From positions 11,974-75,973 of the forward strand of contig JBAYLH010000004.1 in NCBI GenBank assembly GCA_041664165.1: DNA of 64,000 nt, in the 5' to 3' direction. Of this stretch, positions 19,020-46,113 are shown one piece after another. Position 1 is the stretch's first letter. Every line of letters begins with the position of its first letter. Under the pieces are notes generated by a model. It saw nothing but the letters and a program-made list of their open reading frames with translations, was not told the DNA's origin and did not search any database. Position numbers and translations under genes: made by a program. This DNA is from Candidatus Buchananbacteria bacterium. Its GTDB lineage: Bacteria; Patescibacteriota; Patescibacteriia; Buchananbacterales; UBA6539.

Positions 19020-19026
19020 AAATTTT

Positions 19027-19820
19027 GTCCAAGTAAGCTAGATGATCGCCCCCCACTTTCTATGTTCTATGTGTATGTTCTAAAACTTAATAACGGCAAA
19101 TTGTATTTCGGATATACTAGCGACCTTCAGCGTAGAATTAAAGAGCATACTAACGGTGAATCAACCTTTACAGCGAGTTGCAGGCCATTAAAATTAGTAT
19201 ATTACGAAGCCTATAACTCAAAAGAGGATGCCCAAAAAAGAGAAAAAGTATTAAAACAGTTTAAGGGTAGCTATGGTCATTTGAAAAAACGCATCCAAAA
19301 AAGTATTGATAGAAAATAGAAATTAGAAAGTGGGGGGAGGAAAGTCCGAACACCACTAGCGGTAGCTCCTAACGGGAGCCGAGAGCAACAAAAGAATAGA
19401 AGCGCTTAAGACTTCTGGACTTTTGCCAAGCTTAGGGCAAGTGCAACAGAAAATATACCGCCCCCCACCTTCTGTTCAACATTAGTGATTTAAAATCACT
19501 TAAGTGAGCGAGGCGGTTCCGCCTTACTATATTCATTGATCTAAAAGATGATGACTAGAAGGTGGGGGGTAAGGTTGAAAACGTGGGCCCGCCTTCGCGC
19601 GGGATAATCCGCTTCGCCATCTTGGCTTCGGCGGAAAAAGTAAGAGCCCACGCACGACAGACTGGTGACAGTCGGTGTGGTAAACTCCTGCCTGGTGCAA
19701 TGCCAAATTTGGTCGGCAGCACGAGCCTAATGGCAACATTAGGCCAAGATAGATGATCATCTCCCCCACTTTTTTAAAAAATGGGGGAACAGAATTCGGC
19801 TTACCGGCTTGCTTGGACAA
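19027..19820 (+). ncRNA. rnpB: RNase P RNA (bacterial type) with large insertions in P3, P12 and J2/4
   Basis: P1 GUCCAAGUAAGC (19027-) pairs with GCUUGCUUGGAC (19807-19818). P2 AGAUGAUC pairs with GAUCAUCU. P4 5' strand AGGAAAGUCCG at 19338. Conserved AGUGCAACAGAAAAUAUACCGCC, GUAAGAGCCCACGCACG, GGUAAACUCCUGCC...GCCAAAUUUGG, and P4 3' strand ACAGAAUUCGGCUUA at 19790. These match the E. coli M1 RNA landmarks recalled from memory (GGAGGAAAGUCCGG, GUGCAACAGAGAGCAAACCGCC, GUAAGAGCGCACC, GGUAAACUCCACC, ACAGAACCCGGCUUA). Confidence 0.8.
19062..19319 (+). CDS. GIY-YIG nuclease-family small protein (YhbQ/UPF0213-like), encoded inside the rnpB P3 loop
   Basis: 85 aa MFYVYVLKLNNGKLYFGYTSDLQRRIKEHTNGES...; pattern YVYVL..NGKLYFGYT.DL.RR..EH matches the GIY-YIG core. 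Flanked by CCCCCCACTTTC (19049-19060) and GAAAGTGGGGGG (19326-19337). Confidence 0.65.
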   Translation: MFYVYVLKLNNGKLYFGYTSDLQRRIKEHTNGESTFTASCRPLKLVYYEAYNSKEDAQKREKVLKQFKGSYGHLKKRIQKSIDRK

Positions 19821-37047: not shown

Positions 37048-37302
37048 TTAAAACCCGATATTTAAGCGCGAGAGTTTCTGCGCCATGCCCATCTGGGCTT
37101 TACCCAAAGCTTCGTTAACGCATTTTTTAACCGCCGGCCCCTGGCTTTCAACCGGTAAATCCGGATTTAAAATAATTGACTCAACTTTCAAATCGCCGGT
37201 AGCAATTACTCTGATGCCTTGATACTCGGCCTCGTACTGTTCGCTTTTGGCCTGATCCTGCAAGGCTTTGAGCTGGCCTAATTGTTTTAGCTTGTCTAGC
37301 AT
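37048..37302 (-). CDS. ybaB: nucleoid-associated protein YbaB/EbfC
   Basis: 84 aa; conserved position directly downstream of dnaX; GIRVIATGDLKVESIILNPDL...VNEALGKAQMGMAQKL. Confidence 0.7.
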   Translation of the reverse strand: MLDKLKQLGQLKALQDQAKSEQYEAEYQGIRVIATGDLKVESIILNPDLPVESQGPAVKKCVNEALGKAQMGMAQKLSRLNIGF

Positions 37303-37324
37303 AGAGCTATAAATTATTTCTATT

Positions 37325-37350
37325 TATATTAATTAAGGTGGCGCAGAACC
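37325..37350. repeat. 26-bp direct repeat, copy 1 (tatattaattaaggtggcgcagaacc)
   Basis: Exact copy at 37684..37709. Confidence 0.8.
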
Positions 37351-37446
37351 CTAGCTACGTAATTTCATCCCATTTTTACCGCCACGGGAAATCGTCCCGA
37401 TTCAAGATCGGGATCCCGACTTCCTTATTTTATAAAAAATATTTAT

Positions 37447-37527
37447 GTACGTCGGGAAACCCCGATTACCAGAGCCCCGCCTCCGCTAACGCTCCGGCGG
37501 GCGGGCAGAATCTGGCGTCTCCCGACG
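37447..37527 (-). other. degenerate tRNA-Gln-derived fragment (anticodon arm only) with a 30-nt GC-rich insertion in the anticodon loop, closed by a 9-bp outer helix
   Basis: Minus strand GACGUCGGGA-GACG-CCAGA-UUCUG[CCCGCCCGCCGGAGCGUUAGCGGAGGCGGG]GC-UCUGG-UAAUCGGGGUU-UCCCGACGU. The CCAGAUUCUGGCUCUGGUAAUCGGGGUU portion is identical to the intact tRNA-Gln. D and T arms are absent. Confidence 0.4.
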
Positions 37528-37627
37528 TCGCCATTATTTATTTTGCCTTGGTGGCGAGTCGGGATGCCGACTTTTTTTAATATAAAATTGGAAACGTCGG
37601 CACTACACTTAGCCACAAAACTCGGGG

Positions 37628-37644
37628 ACAGGGAGTCCCCGCCC
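37628..37644 (-). repeat. 17-bp copy of the tRNA-Gln 3' end (ACUCCCUGUCCCCGAG)
   Basis: Exact repeat of 37751..37767, same orientation, 107 bp downstream of the tRNA 3' end. Confidence 0.7.
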
Positions 37645-37683
37645 GAACCTCCCTAATGGTAAGCATGGCGGGTGCGCCCTTTT

Positions 37684-37709
37684 TATATTAATTAAGGTGG
37701 CGCAGAACC
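37684..37709. repeat. 26-bp direct repeat, copy 2
   Basis: Exact copy of 37325..37350. Confidence 0.8.
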
Positions 37710-37750
37710 TTGATTGACGGAGCCCTTACCTTGATTAATAGTATCCAATT

Positions 37751-37821
37751 CTCGGGGACAGGGAGTCGAACCCCGATTACCAGAGCCAGAATCTGGCGTC
37801 CTACCATTAGACGATCCCCGA
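37751..37821 (-). tRNA. tRNA-Gln (anticodon CUG)
   Basis: UCGGGGA-UC-GUCU-AAUGGUA-GGAC-G-CCAGA-UUCUGGC-UCUGG-UAAU-CGGGG-UUCGACU-CCCUG-UCCCCGA-G. U1-A72 and G73 as in bacterial tRNA-Gln; G18G19 and T-loop UUCGA present; CCA not encoded. Confidence 0.75.
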
Positions 37822-37949
37822 GAATTGGATACTATATTTTCTAAAAATCTTTTGAATACCTGGCCATAACAGGTTAAACATTAGACCTGCCTGTCGGCAG
37901 GCAGGCGATCCCCCGAGTTTTGGGGCTAAACGATTAAATTTAATCTATA

Positions 37950-39541
37950 TTATTCAACCAGCTGACCGCCGAAAGACTGCAAAACATTATCAATTGAATC
38001 CTGGCTGGTTTTGGCTTCCGCCAAGGTAGCCACTTCGACTTTCTCTTCGGGCAAATCTTTAACCACGGCCGTTCTGACTATCAGCTGAACGCCGAAAACA
38101 TCGCGCAAAACCTGTTCTAAAATCAGGCGATTTTTATTATCATTAACTCGCTGCTGGTGGAATTTATGGCGAAAGCAGACTTCCAAAATACCGTCTTCGC
38201 CGACAGTTGACGGCTGGGAAATTCTCAAAGTTGAAGCCAGGCTTTGGTTATATTTTTTTAGGCAAATCAAAACTTCCTCCCATTTTTCCTTGACCTGGTC
38301 CAAAGTTAATTTGACTTTAGCGATTGGTATTTTCGGAGTTTCTTTTTCCGGCTCTTTTTCTTTCACTTCCGACTCTTCGATTTTCAAAATCGGCTCGGTT
38401 TTTAGACCCGATCCCCCGCCGCCTTGCGGCTTATCATCGGAATGGCTATCGTCGCCAATTATTTCCAAAACCGCCAACTCCAGCGGCAGCTGTAAAATAT
38501 CGGCAAACTTTAATTCCTGTTTTTTTACTAAAATAATTTCAATGATCTTAATTAGAAATTCCAGGGAAATTTGGCTGGAAACTTCAATCGCTCTTTTTTC
38601 CAAATCCTTACTCAAACCGCCGGTGAATTCATTAAGTTGGCTGCTGACTTTCATCAGCAAAATTTTTCTTAAAACTTCGATTAAATCGCCGGTAAATTTA
38701 TCCAAATCAATCCCCTCGGAAACCAAGCGGTTGATTAAGCCGATCGCGCCGGCCGAATCTTTCCGGTTTAAAAATTCAATGAATTCCAGGACTAAATCAA
38801 ACCGGGAACGGGGCAAAACTAATTCGGCTTGTTCGGCCGTAATTTCCTTGTCGCCCAAAGATAAGATCTGACCCAGCAGGCTTTCCGCATCGCGGATGCC
38901 GCCTTCGGCGTAGTAAGCGATATTTTCTAAAATCGACTGGCTAACGACCTTGCCTTCTTTTTCAGTGATAAAATTCAGCCGCTTGGCGATCTCAAGCTCG
39001 GAAACTTTGCGAAAATCAAAATGCTGGCAGCGAGAAATAATCGTTTGCGGCACTTTATAAATTTCCGTGGTCGCTAAAATAAAAATGGCATGAGCCGGCG
39101 GTTCTTCCAAAGTCTTAAGTAAGGCATTAAAAGCCGAAATTGACAGCATGTGGACTTCATCGATAATGAAAACTTTGAATTTCCGGCTGGTCGGCGTAAA
39201 TCGGGAATTATTAATGATATTTTCCCGGACGTTGTCAACGCCGGTGTGCGAAGCGGCATCAATTTCAATATATCCAAAGACCGGGCCGCCATCATTTCCT
39301 GGCAGGAATCGCAGACATTGCAAGGCTCGCTTTCGTTCGGCTGGCGATTTGAGCAATTCACCGCTTTGGCCAAAAGCCGCGCCGTCGTGGTCTTGCCTAA
39401 GCCGCGGGGACCGGAAAATAAATAAGCATGAGCGACTTTGCCGGTTTCCAGCTCGCTTTGCAAGGTAGTTTTGATATGGTTTTGACCGACCACTTCCTTA
39501 AAGGTTTGCGGCCGGTATTTGCGGTATAAAGCCAAGGACAT
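37950..39541 (-). CDS. dnaX: DNA polymerase III subunit gamma/tau; reading frame interrupted (apparent -1 shift near 39281..39300) inside the N-terminal ATPase domain
   Basis: Frame A (39541->) MSLALYRKYRPQTFKEVVGQNHIKTTLQ...GPRGLGKTTTARLLAKAVNC...CNVCDSCQEMM. Frame B continues NDGGPVFGYIEIDAASHTGVDNVREN...FIIDEVHMLS...ISRCQHFDF. The switch falls in the GC run ccgggccgcc. Confidence 0.8.
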
Positions 39542-44265: not shown

Positions 44266-46113
44266 TTAGTTTACTATCTGGTAGCTGGAAATTGTTTCAT
44301 AATCAACATTGAATATTTTCTTGCCCTGATAAGCATTGTCAGGACTTGGCACCGTAGCGATATGTTTAAGAGTCTGGCCGGCGACTTCATAAATTTTCCA
44401 ATCCGGCGTCTTGAGCAAACTCCCGTCGGCGTATTTTTTTACCCCCAAAACCTGGCCGCCGGTTTCAATCGTCGGCAAAGGGCTGAAATAAGCCGCCAAA
44501 TCATCGTCGCTGATATTATAAATCGTTTTACCGGCATACCGGTTTAATTCAGCTAAACCGGTAATTTGTCGCGGGGATTGATTTTCAATGATATAAATTT
44601 TTCTGTTTGGAGTTCGAATCAACGCCCCGTCGGCGTATTTTTTTACCCCCAAAACCTGGCCGGGGACTGAAACTTTTTTATCAGTATATTGAGCCAACAC
44701 GCCATAATCAACGTCATAGATTCTTTTGCCGTTTAATTGATTATCTGGGCCTGCAATCGTATCAAGGTATAATAGCTTGTCATTTTGGACTAAATAAACT
44801 TTCCAGTCGCGAGTCCGCAATAAAGTGCCGTTGGCGTATTTTTTTACCCCCAAAACTTTTTCGCCGGAATTTACCCCTTGATTCTGGTAATAGTTGAAGG
44901 ATTCATTATCAATATTATAAATTTTTTGGCCGGCATAATAATTTTCACTGGCAGCCAGGGTGGCAACATGCCGAATTGTCTGGTCTTCAATAATATAAAC
45001 TTTGCCATCGGCTGTTCTGACGATTGTGCCAACCACGTATTGTTTGACGCCTAAAACTTTACCCGTCGTATCCGGGTGGCTGCCGGTATAATTTAAGCCT
45101 AAATAATTATCAATGGTCCAAAAATCGACATTATTAATCTTTTGCCCTTCATAATTATCTATTAATTCCTGATGAGTGCCGATATAACGAAATTTTTGAT
45201 TTTCAACCCGATAAATTCGCCAGTCGCAAGTTCGCAGCAATTGGCCGTCTCTAAACGTTTTCAGCCCAAAAACCGGATTTTGAGTGTAGCTATAAATGAC
45301 ATTGAAATCAACATCAAAAACCGCCGAGTCATTGTAAGTTCTTTGGCTTAGAGGAATTTTTTTGGAAACATCGACGGCTTTTTGATTTTCGATCTGATAA
45401 AGCTGGCCGTCGCAGGTCCTCAAGTAAGAACCATTAGCATATTCTTTGACGCCTAAAACTTCCGGGCCATAGTGGCAGCGGTCATAAGTTTCAAGAATCG
45501 GCGGCAAGCCCGGCGCATTAATCACGGCAAAAGTACCGATATCATTAACGGCAAAAATAGTTTTATTATCAACATCAAAAATTGCCTTTTGGCCTAAAAC
45601 CCATTGACTGTTATTATTCAAAAAATAAATTCCCAGGCTAGTCAAGTCGGCCGGCAAATTGGCAATGGTTAAATTAACGTTAAGATTCTGCAAAAAATTG
45701 CCGCTTAAATTATTGTTCCGGTCTTTGGCCGACAAATTAAAAATTTTACCGCCGATAATTGCATTCTGACTATCGCAGGGCTGATTGGTCGAATCAAGGC
45801 CGACATAATTTACTTCAAAGATAGTGTAGTCTTTAACCGCTAAAGGCGGGATTTCTAATTCCAATAAAATATCATTGCCTGATCGCCGAATTAACTTACC
45901 ATTGCGATATTGATCCGGAATCACTAGCCAATTATTAATCGCCGTTATCGGCTCTAAAATAGTACTTCCGCCCCCGCCGCCGCCATAGCCAAAAGCGATG
46001 TGGTTATTTAAAAATTCACCGGCGCCAAAATTGCCGGACAAATAGACAATGGCTAAAACCGCCAAGCTGCCTGCTGAAATATTGAATTTTGAGCGTTTAA
46101 GCAATTCAAACAT
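44266..46113 (-). CDS. secreted repeat protein (six tandem ~60-aa VLGVKxYxxG...RTxDxKxY repeats)
   Basis: 615 aa; N-terminal signal/TM; repeats e.g. QVLGVKKYADGSLLKTPDWKIYEVAGQTLKHI. Confidence 0.55.
   Translation of the reverse strand: MFELLKRSKFNISAGSLAVLAIVYLSGNFGAGEFLNNHIAFGYGGGGGGSTILEPITAINNWLVIPDQYRNGKLIRRSGNDILLELEIPPLAVKDYTIFEVNYVGLDSTNQPCDSQNAIIGGKIFNLSAKDRNNNLSGNFLQNLNVNLTIANLPADLTSLGIYFLNNNSQWVLGQKAIFDVDNKTIFAVNDIGTFAVINAPGLPPILETYDRCHYGPEVLGVKEYANGSYLRTCDGQLYQIENQKAVDVSKKIPLSQRTYNDSAVFDVDFNVIYSYTQNPVFGLKTFRDGQLLRTCDWRIYRVENQKFRYIGTHQELIDNYEGQKINNVDFWTIDNYLGLNYTGSHPDTTGKVLGVKQYVVGTIVRTADGKVYIIEDQTIRHVATLAASENYYAGQKIYNIDNESFNYYQNQGVNSGEKVLGVKKYANGTLLRTRDWKVYLVQNDKLLYLDTIAGPDNQLNGKRIYDVDYGVLAQYTDKKVSVPGQVLGVKKYADGALIRTPNRKIYIIENQSPRQITGLAELNRYAGKTIYNISDDDLAAYFSPLPTIETGGQVLGVKKYADGSLLKTPDWKIYEVAGQTLKHIATVPSPDNAYQGKKIFNVDYETISSYQIVN

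Follow-up and report, generated by a model that had tools for sequence, protein, structure and literature searches.

The dnaX-ybaB spacer and its intact tRNA-Gln gene

We analyzed a 647-bp block (positions 37303-37949) between dnaX and ybaB in a 64,000-nt stretch of DNA from Candidatus Buchananbacteria, hereafter the window. The block contains one intact tRNA-Gln gene, broken tRNA-Gln copies and GC-rich hairpins, and appears to be the remnant of a nuclease-bearing cassette. The gene order on the minus strand is dnaX (37950-39356), the 647-bp spacer, ybaB (37048-37302) and an ABC transporter. DnaX searches of genome and metagenome collections place the host in the Patescibacteria (candidate phyla radiation, CPR), near Buchananbacteria, Falkowbacteria and Magasanikbacteria, and the closest DnaX relative in these scans shares no more than 48% identity. 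In 29 of 58 related loci, dnaX is directly followed by a tRNA-Gln gene in the same orientation, usually with a CUG anticodon. Thus, a tRNA-Gln at the dnaX junction is ancestral in this group. A tight junction is not the rule in this phylum, contrary to the assumption in an earlier reading of the window made without database searches (the sequence-only reading). The same block, without a single base difference, is present in two assemblies obtained independently from other samples (L236 and L237; L-numbers denote related loci or assemblies) and is therefore not an assembly artefact. Its repeats do break short-read assemblies: in two public Logan k-mer assemblies, contigs end inside the block, 121 nt upstream of the ybaB start (calculated position ~37423).

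The features on which the analysis is based are as follows (all on the minus strand; MFE, minimum free energy fold).

37751-37821, intact tRNA-Gln(CUG), called by ARAGORN and matched by Rfam RF00005 with 59.4 bits (threshold 29)
37822-37835, leader arm ATAGTATCCAATTC, pairing with the trailer arm (inverted repeat I1, 21 nt, 100% complementary), in the MFE fold
37738-37750, trailer arm AATTGGATACTAT, pairing together with G73 (37751) with the leader arm, in the MFE fold
37879-37917, outer 5' piece of a second tRNA-Gln, positions -1 to 17, found by reading the sequence
37918-37929, outer leader arm TTAGCCCCAAAA, inverted repeat I2, in the MFE fold
37609-37620, outer trailer arm TTTTGTGGCTAA, inverted repeat I2
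37621-37653, outer 3' piece GGGAGGTTCG[GGCGGGG]ACTCCCTGTCCCCGAG, found by BLAST and by nhmmer (model positions 48-71)
37449-37528, piece B, tRNA positions 23-36 and 36-54, found by BLAST (repeat families D1, D6 and I6)

The intact tRNA-Gln is 71 nt long, has G73 as discriminator and does not encode CCA. It folds into a cloverleaf and scores above the Rfam tRNA threshold, like a canonical bacterial tRNA, and appears to be the sole functional-looking gene of the block. It was the only call of ARAGORN in intron mode, and no second tRNA was found in the block with the intron, mitochondrial or tmRNA modes (low thresholds gave spurious calls only). The outer copy, piece B and the other fragments do not form a complete cloverleaf, even with introns allowed. 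Rfam searches of the whole window at the gathering threshold and of positions 37200-38050 at E ≤ 10 returned the tRNA alone, the remainder being at chance level (E > 3). SRP RNA, which adjoins dnaX in Firmicutes, as well as GOLLD/ROOL and T-box RNAs were rejected as identities of the block, since none gave an Rfam match. For annotation, the block should be treated as one tRNA-Gln gene with pseudogene debris, not as additional tRNAs or a riboswitch.

With the 14 bp contributed by the leader and trailer arms, the acceptor stem comprises 21 base pairs without a mismatch (37738-37758 with 37815-37835). The leader arm ATAGTATCCAATTC has no second mismatch-free occurrence in the window, and neither the leader and trailer arms nor a 26-nt direct repeat of the block (see below) are dispersed across it.

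Broken tRNA-Gln copies around the intact gene

A BLAST search of the 64-kb window with the tRNA sequence revealed three exact partial copies, all within the spacer. A copy of tRNA positions 56-72 lies at 37621-37637, 113 nt past the intact tRNA (100% identity, E = 2e-4), and copies of positions 23-36 and 36-54 lie at 37506-37519 and 37458-37476 (both 100%; E = 1.3e-5 and 0.012). The first of these represents the last 17 nt of the outer 3' piece, which is the same as the intact tRNA from G57 on and comprises the T-arm, the acceptor 3' strand and G73, with a 7-nt GC insert in the T-loop. On the other side of the intact gene, the outer 5' piece reads CTCGGGG(G)ATCG-[CCTGCCTGCCGACAGGCAGG]-TCTAATG, that is, positions -1 to 10 with one extra G, a hairpin, and positions 11-17. 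The hairpin, CCTGCCTG-CCGA-CAGGCAGG (37886-37905), is inserted at tRNA position 10/11, and the piece terminates at position 17, approximately 60 nt upstream of the intact tRNA. The pattern ATCG-N20-TCTAATG is unique in the window.

The flanks of the two outer pieces form a 19-bp helix (37609-37627 with 37911-37929; 95% complementary, arms 283 nt apart), which includes the outer 5' acceptor strand and is present in the MFE fold. The intact gene is therefore nested inside a gutted one, which formerly had an extended leader/trailer helix of its own. Piece B is split in the anticodon loop by a 29-nt hairpin, CCCGCC...GGCGGGG (37477-37505), and is flanked by ACGTCGGGA (37520-37528) and TCCCGACGT (37449-37457); hairpins with similar stems are also present in L002 and L104. 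Together, the block carries at least three extra partial copies of tRNA-Gln, and all breakpoints are located in loops (D-loop, 17/18; anticodon loop, 36/37; T-loop, 54-57). Hairpin arms are strongly concentrated in the block compared to the rest of the window, with CCTGCC/GGCAGG, CCCGCC/GGCGGG and TCCCGAC/GTCGGGA being 11-, 14- and 100-fold denser, respectively.

Part of this anatomy had been recognized in the sequence-only reading. The intact tRNA-Gln(CUG) was confirmed at the proposed position, and both parts of the anticodon-arm and variable-region copy, described as split by a hairpin and enclosed by ACGTCGGGA/TCCCGACGT, are indeed 100% identical to the tRNA. The reported 17-nt copy of the tRNA 3' end exists and is exact, but it lies at 37621-37637 and not at 37628-37644. 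The outer 5' piece, the 19-bp and 21-bp helices and a degenerate copy at 37706-37724 had been missed.

Recurrent fragmentation of tRNA-Gln in related Patescibacteria

To place the block in context, we surveyed 62 tRNA-Gln genes in dnaX-linked loci. Nineteen of the 62 genes have partial copies of themselves within 1.5 kb, and ten are followed, at a distance of at most 500 nt, by their own 3' 12-mer, compared to one background match in 844 kb. The intervals between the tRNA and the 3' piece in these ten loci are 45-317 nt. The corresponding control with other tRNAs was uninformative; its matches were tandem tRNA-Ser pairs from other phyla. The related loci share 65-75% DNA identity even in conserved genes, and an all-against-all DNA comparison found no close pairs among them (an alignment of L083 with L086 was uninformative). 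Since the fragments are nevertheless so similar to the functional tRNA, they look young in each lineage, pointing to a recurrent process rather than to shared inheritance. Alternatively, this similarity could be kept by selection or by gene conversion from the intact tRNA. A scan of phage contigs for this type of tRNA-Gln found ordinary phage tRNA clusters and no link to the block.

The nested anatomy of the window recurs in several forms. L008, L089 and L011 have the order 5' piece, intact tRNA, 3' piece. L012 is a compact version of the window design, in which the CCTGCCTG hairpin again lies at tRNA position 10/11, leader and trailer form a 12-bp stem and the outer T-stem is GAAA-capped, and L151 has a 5' piece carrying the same hairpin in flipped orientation. 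A complete outer tRNA-Gln in L086 is interrupted in its T-loop by a second, different tRNA-Gln, which is likewise complete and has paired flanks. In L082, an 84-aa open reading frame (ORF) of the GIY-YIG nuclease family, together with a different tRNA-Gln, splits the outer tRNA-Gln, and L002 contains pseudo-copies full of hairpins. In the window, L008, L083, L089, L097 and L131, the 3' pieces begin at positions 55-57 in the T-loop.

Two short elements accompany these loci. The palindromic hairpin CCTGCCTRCCGRYAGGCAGG is a dispersed Patescibacteria repeat found in L012 (5287-5306), L151 (4601-4620), L089 (134-153 and 4689), L092 (three copies), L128 (as an array), downstream in L222 and in the window (37886-37905). 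Three lineages, one of them with the flipped orientation, have it at position 10/11 of a tRNA-Gln 5' piece. Because it also occupies unrelated sites, it may be a very small palindrome that is mobile or recombinogenic. In addition, an inverted copy of the gene's own T-loop/T-stem (e.g. GGGATTCGAAC) lies 60-72 nt after the intact tRNA-Gln in L008 (6970-6982), L089 (4979-4989), L090 (2010-2021) and L131 (4665-4677). These inverted copies can pair with the downstream 3' piece, and their sequence fits the motif RAWTSGAAC reported for cleavage by SegB of phage T6.

The sequence-only reading described the block as a scar zone of repeated integration and excision. A scar zone with tRNA-derived fragments from several events is supported, but integration and excision by an integrase fit poorly. 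On that account, elements encoding a tyrosine or serine recombinase would have inserted into the T-loop of tRNA-Gln, restored its 3' end, left the displaced end as a direct repeat and later been deleted to 40-300 bp. The 3' pieces starting at 55-57 in the six loci named above correspond to the classic attachment sublocation, a 17-nt direct repeat of the 3' portion (37621-37637) is present in the window, and the repeat in L083 continues 5 nt past the tRNA end. However, integration that restores the 3' end does not produce upstream 5' pieces or nesting, as observed in the window, L012, L086, L082, L008 and L089. No integrase was found among the six flanking genes examined (the flanks include dnaX, ybaB, the ABC transporter, DUF4015 and L25), and none of the 62 loci contains a full-size island. 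The short intervals in the ten loci leave no room for an integrase gene, with only 113 nt separating the window tRNA from its repeat. We consider an integrase origin highly unlikely.

Extended leader/trailer helices and the possibility of a structured RNA

Helices of 12-16 bp formed by leader and trailer segments of unrelated sequence surround tRNA-Gln in 11 lineages, almost all of which also carry pseudo-pieces. By a run-length measure, extensions of at least 7 bp are present in 8 of 60 Patescibacteria tRNA-Gln genes, compared to 0 of 41 other tRNAs and 1 of 390 phage tRNAs. The 41 other tRNAs come from dnaX-derived loci and are mostly tRNA-Ser pairs of other phyla, which makes them a weak control for the Patescibacteria count. 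G:U pairs outnumber A:C mismatches in these helices (16 versus 7, p = 0.047), but the score used to choose the helices accepts G:U, so this excess is discounted and is suggestive at most. From these data, we infer that the 14-bp extension in the window most plausibly acts at the RNA level, either as a clamp or as a processing stem of the RNase III type. Such a clamp would hold the true acceptor strands together amid decoy strands of identical sequence. A pre-tRNA with a 21-bp closed acceptor helix is unusual and raises the question of how it is processed in the CPR.

Could the whole block be a functional structured RNA, that is, one processed domain acting, for instance, as a tRNA mimic, as a decoy or as a processing scaffold for freeing tRNA-Gln from the dnaX-ybaB transcript? 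The fold of the block is far more stable than that of shuffled sequences (z = -8.2) and includes both closing helices. The recurrence of the extended helices with unrelated sequences, their enrichment at tRNA-Gln and the G:U excess, biased as it is, point in the same direction, as do the GAAA-capped outer T-stem of L012 and a compensatory change at pair 7:66 in the same locus. Against such a role, every lineage has its own order, number, breakpoints and spacing of pieces, the outer helices of L011 and the window contain mismatches, and covariation-like behaviour is confined to the leader/trailer stem and absent from the fragments. A tRNA-like regulatory RNA had been offered as an alternative in the sequence-only reading. 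It is not supported, given the lack of an Rfam family at E ≤ 10, the single tRNA called in intron mode and the differences among lineages. The spacer comparison proposed there as a check shows that the position, order and hairpin sequence of the analogous pieces vary, which, like the missing Rfam match, contradicts a single conserved structured RNA. A structured-RNA function for the block is thus rather unlikely.

A GIY-YIG nuclease cassette linked to tRNA-Gln

A protein search with the 84-aa ORF of L082 returned over 150 Patescibacteria homologues at E ≤ 1e-8, of which the 120 listed are 64-100% identical to it. In all nine distinct lineages examined (L082, L219, L220, L222, L224, L226, L230, L234 and L247), the gene is part of one and the same module with the order tRNA-Gln 5' piece (positions 1-17/18), two hairpins, TAGGAC(A), a GIY-YIG ORF of about 80 aa and an intact tRNA-Gln. 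In each of the nine, the break in the 5' piece lies at 17/18 in the D-loop and is filled by the two conserved hairpins, [C/T]CCCGCC-loop-GCGGG[G/A] and TCCCGC-loop-GCGGGA. The end of the ORF is separated from the intact tRNA-Gln by 3-18 nt in eight lineages. In L234, the ORF (end 1758) overlaps the first 15 nt of the tRNA (start 1744), with the TAA of the tRNA D-loop serving as its stop codon. L226 combines the ORF with an 8-bp leader/trailer stem and two different 3' pieces, and the second tRNA-Gln of L230 is chimeric.

The genes adjoining these cassettes are all different (ftsX, HIT, GreA/NUDIX, MFS, dnaX and CorA). Between hosts that share 42, 57 and 45% identity in FtsX, FtsE and DnaX, respectively, the identity of the cassette nuclease is 61-85%, and its C-terminal sequence ARKRENYLKKLKGGNEFKKI is invariant in eight of the nine lineages, L234 differing at four of 20 residues. 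Judged by these pairwise identities, the greater conservation of the nuclease relative to host proteins is a signature of a horizontally moving gene. As in homing elements, the ORF lies within or abuts its presumed target at the same site and is better conserved than its hosts; both features belong to the related loci and not to the window block.

The cassette protein (80-85 aa) consists of the GIY-YIG catalytic domain only (PF01541). Its scores against TIGR01453, the group I intron endonuclease model, are 18-22 bits (cut-off 56), and it has no PHROG match. A classical homing endonuclease of the I-TevI/Seg type, in which a linker and a C-terminal DNA-binding domain follow the N-terminal GIY-YIG domain, was rejected on these three grounds. 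The nearest solved structures are the UPF0213 proteins 1zg2 and 1ywl, which have been classed as bacterial Slx1-like minimal GIY-YIG nucleases (PMC1564403). The cassette would give this widespread family of tiny nucleases a testable target, namely tRNA-Gln DNA with its D-loop and T-loop. No paper describing the tRNA-Gln cassette or the nests was found in the literature searched.

Other GIY-YIG subfamilies also adjoin tRNA-Gln, being located downstream of the tRNA in L110 (4292-4691), L117 (2507-2942) and L119 (4305-4714). The L110 ORF has the intact tRNA on one side and, on the other, a copy in which a TCCGCC hairpin takes the place of the D-arm. It thus seems that tRNA-Gln is a target of several nuclease lineages.

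The window itself encodes a GIY-YIG protein related to the cassette nuclease in a different structured-RNA gene. The RNase P RNA gene (19025-19820, plus strand) is matched by Rfam at 19323-19819, but upstream pairing in P1 (19025-19038 with 19807-19820, the 3' end) and P3 (19049-19061 with 19325-19337, 13 bp) indicates that this match misses the true 5' end, which lies near 19025. The P3 loop holds an 85-aa GIY-YIG ORF (19062-19319), and homologous ORFs occupy the same P3 loop in L240, L242 and L245, making four of four lineages together with the window, with compensatory changes in the P3 extension. A promoter-like TTGACA-17-TAATAT sequence lies directly upstream of the RNase P RNA gene.

A homing-type cassette as the likely origin of the block

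In the simplest reading of the intact cassettes, they would be homing-type elements specialized on the tRNA-Gln gene and carrying a spare tRNA-Gln. The anatomy of the block, its recurrence and the association of the nuclease gene with tRNA-Gln are observations; from them, we infer that the insertions were caused by the nuclease and that the block is derived from a cassette of this kind, as ORF-less debris of repeated invasions of the resident tRNA-Gln by a selfish GIY-YIG element (estimated probability roughly 0.6). The nuclease would break an uninvaded tRNA-Gln gene, and repair from a cassette-bearing copy would import the nuclease gene together with a whole tRNA-Gln, so that the host would keep its essential tRNA. 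The remains of the broken gene would persist as 5' and 3' pieces around the newcomer. Where donor and recipient differ, the right-hand junction would fall in the conserved T-loop. In the window, the nuclease ORF would later have been lost, leaving at least two older generations of fragments and hairpins.

The layout of the window matches that of the cassettes, with a 5' piece ending at position 17, a short gap, an intact tRNA, 3' pieces starting in the T-loop and similar hairpin arms. This likeness, combined with the lack of an ORF or its relic, supports the designation as an ORF-less fossil with moderate confidence. The related GIY-YIG ORF in the RNase P RNA gene of the same genome may also be counted in favour of this origin.

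Several points weigh against it. In the 56-nt spacer where a relic of the GIY-YIG ORF would be expected, a search for one gave no significant result (best p = 0.05), and the hairpin of the window 5' piece, located at 10/11 and belonging to the CCTGCCTG family, is unlike the two D-loop hairpins of the cassettes. The activity, target and homing of the cassette nuclease are putative, and the tRNA-Gln carried by the cassette would have to be spared from cleavage. Among close relatives, no pair with an empty and a filled site turned up; an exact YbaB look-up returned the same population with an identical spacer alone. Finally, the outer pieces are the same as the inner tRNA in the window, L008 and L089, and duplication within the genome fits this as well as import does.

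Such local duplication would require no mobile element: slippage or template switching driven by hairpins and palindromes would produce direct and inverted partial copies, which would then decay. Besides the identity of outer and inner sequences in these three loci, this explanation is favoured by the inverted T-arm copies 60-70 nt after the tRNA in L008, L089, L090 and L131, by loop breakpoints beside palindromes and by the flipped CCTGCCTG hairpin of L151. However, the inner and outer sequences represent different well-formed tRNAs in L086, L082, L002 and L226, and the nuclease is strictly linked to the tRNA-Gln 5' piece (9 of 9 lineages). The process would also have to spare other tRNAs, a comparison for which the control set of other Patescibacteria tRNAs is very small. 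We regard local duplication alone as unlikely.

Extending the cassette origin beyond this locus, minimal Slx1-like GIY-YIG nucleases of about 80 aa in Patescibacteria might be undescribed selfish elements, each lineage being specialized on one structured-RNA gene. The RNase P lineage would reside in the tolerant P3 loop, and the tRNA-Gln lineage would travel with a spare tRNA and a hairpin-plugged decoy of the tRNA 5' third, leaving nested fossils. This broader proposal is tentative, and we give it slightly less than even odds. As a speculation, the GC hairpins could be DNA structures (hairpin or cruciform) recognized by a nuclease that has no additional domain.

Comparison with known systems

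The closest characterized system appears, by analogy, to be SegB of phages T4 and T6, a free-standing GIY-YIG homing endonuclease encoded in a tRNA gene cluster, whose target site contains a conserved tRNA T-stem-loop motif (PMC2330249; PMC13096335). SegB drives the non-reciprocal inheritance of itself and of neighbouring tRNA genes and duplicates a tRNA-plus-nuclease segment (PMC2330249; PMC13096335). Both systems place a GIY-YIG gene among tRNA genes, and the many T-loop breakpoints of the block fit the target preference of SegB. In contrast to the phage enzyme, which was compared by description only, the cassette protein is encoded in Patescibacteria chromosomes and is an 80-aa bare catalytic domain nearest to UPF0213/Slx1-like proteins. 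Furthermore, the cassette is bound to one tRNA species and has a decoy 5' piece and two conserved hairpins. The known kind of event in the block is thus probably homing-endonuclease-associated tRNA gene duplication, and the block a testable lead to an undescribed cassette. If this is correct, a mobile cassette invades an essential single-copy tRNA gene by bringing a replacement, and the SegB-tRNA relationship of phages extends to the chromosomes of a very large uncultured bacterial phylum.

The block also resembles integrase-borne islands and phages with their attL/attR sites in having a direct repeat of the tRNA 3' end downstream of an intact tRNA, and in both cases the mobile DNA carries the part of the tRNA that keeps the gene whole. 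Unlike these elements, the cassette duplicates mainly the 5' third of the tRNA, as a mirror image, whole tRNAs are nested, there is no recombinase and the inserts are tiny.

Insertions in the rRNA genes of CPR bacteria, some of which encode LAGLIDADG or GIY-YIG proteins, have been described previously, including GIY-YIG ORFs in non-intron insertions (PMC11270868). They occur in the same phylum and, like the elements analyzed here, at the tops or bases of stem-loops in structured-RNA genes. That study dealt with 16S and 23S rRNA alone, and neither tRNA nor RNase P RNA is mentioned in its text (PMC11270868). An insertion in a loop can be tolerated by rRNA and RNase P RNA but not by a tRNA, which may explain the spare gene in the tRNA-Gln cassette.

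Disrupted tRNA genes with multiple non-canonical introns, as well as split and permuted tRNA genes, are found in archaea, and a mobile-element origin has been proposed for them (PMC4390854, PMC3293823). They share with the block short hairpin-like inserts in the D-, anticodon- and T-loops and complementary GC-rich leader/trailer flanks. In archaea, the tRNA pieces are joined into functional tRNAs by a dedicated splicing endonuclease and a ligase, whereas the pieces in the block are incomplete, partly mismatched and located beside an intact gene.

Other features of the spacer and the window

The remaining features of the block are listed below.

37706-37724, minus strand, degenerate copy of tRNA positions 36-54, GGCTCCGTCAATCAAGGTT, 74% identity (repeat families D1 and D2)
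37673-37704, minus strand, T-loop hairpin TGCGCC-[AT-rich 20-nt loop]-GGCGCA, following the degenerate 36-54 copy
37679-37709, minus strand, direct-repeat copy 1, comprising the T-loop and the 5' half of the 37673-37704 hairpin
37320-37350, minus strand, direct-repeat copy 2 (minus-strand sequence GGTTCTGCGCCACCTTAATTAATATAAATAG), located 18 nt upstream of the ybaB start codon
37395-37421, no strand assigned, palindromes GTCCCGAT-tcaag-ATCGGGAT and TCGGGATCCCGA with TCCCGAC/GTCGGGA-family arms
37556-37573, no strand assigned, hairpin GAGTCGGGATGCCGACTT with TCCCGAC/GTCGGGA-type arms (D5 and I5)

The direct repeat, which like the local palindromes had already been noted in the sequence-only reading, is exact over 26 nt and 97% identical over 31 nt, with two copies found and none expected by chance. 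L002 has an analogous T-loop hairpin with the AT-rich loop ATTAATTAA. The hairpin GAGTCGGGATGCCGACTT is followed by TTTTTAATAT and is terminator-like on the plus strand. Two hairpin and T-run sites resembling intrinsic terminators (37556-37580 and 37408-37440, plus strand) are oriented opposite to all neighbouring genes; they might end antisense transcription that would otherwise enter the tRNA region, or simply be a chance by-product of the hairpin repeats.

Elsewhere in the window, TTACCCCCAAAAC recurs three times with a spacing of about 200 nt (44439-44856, plus strand). These repeats are located inside a 615-aa minus-strand ORF (44266-46113) and therefore probably encode a repeated protein segment unrelated to the tRNA block. 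At position ~39271 in dnaX, the window is 1 nt shorter than L236 and L237, both of the same population, which splits the gene into two ORFs (39074-39541 and 37950-39356). In L236 and L237, dnaX is a single unbroken ORF of 530 aa, and the split is thus a variant or an error confined to the window sequence rather than a programmed frameshift.

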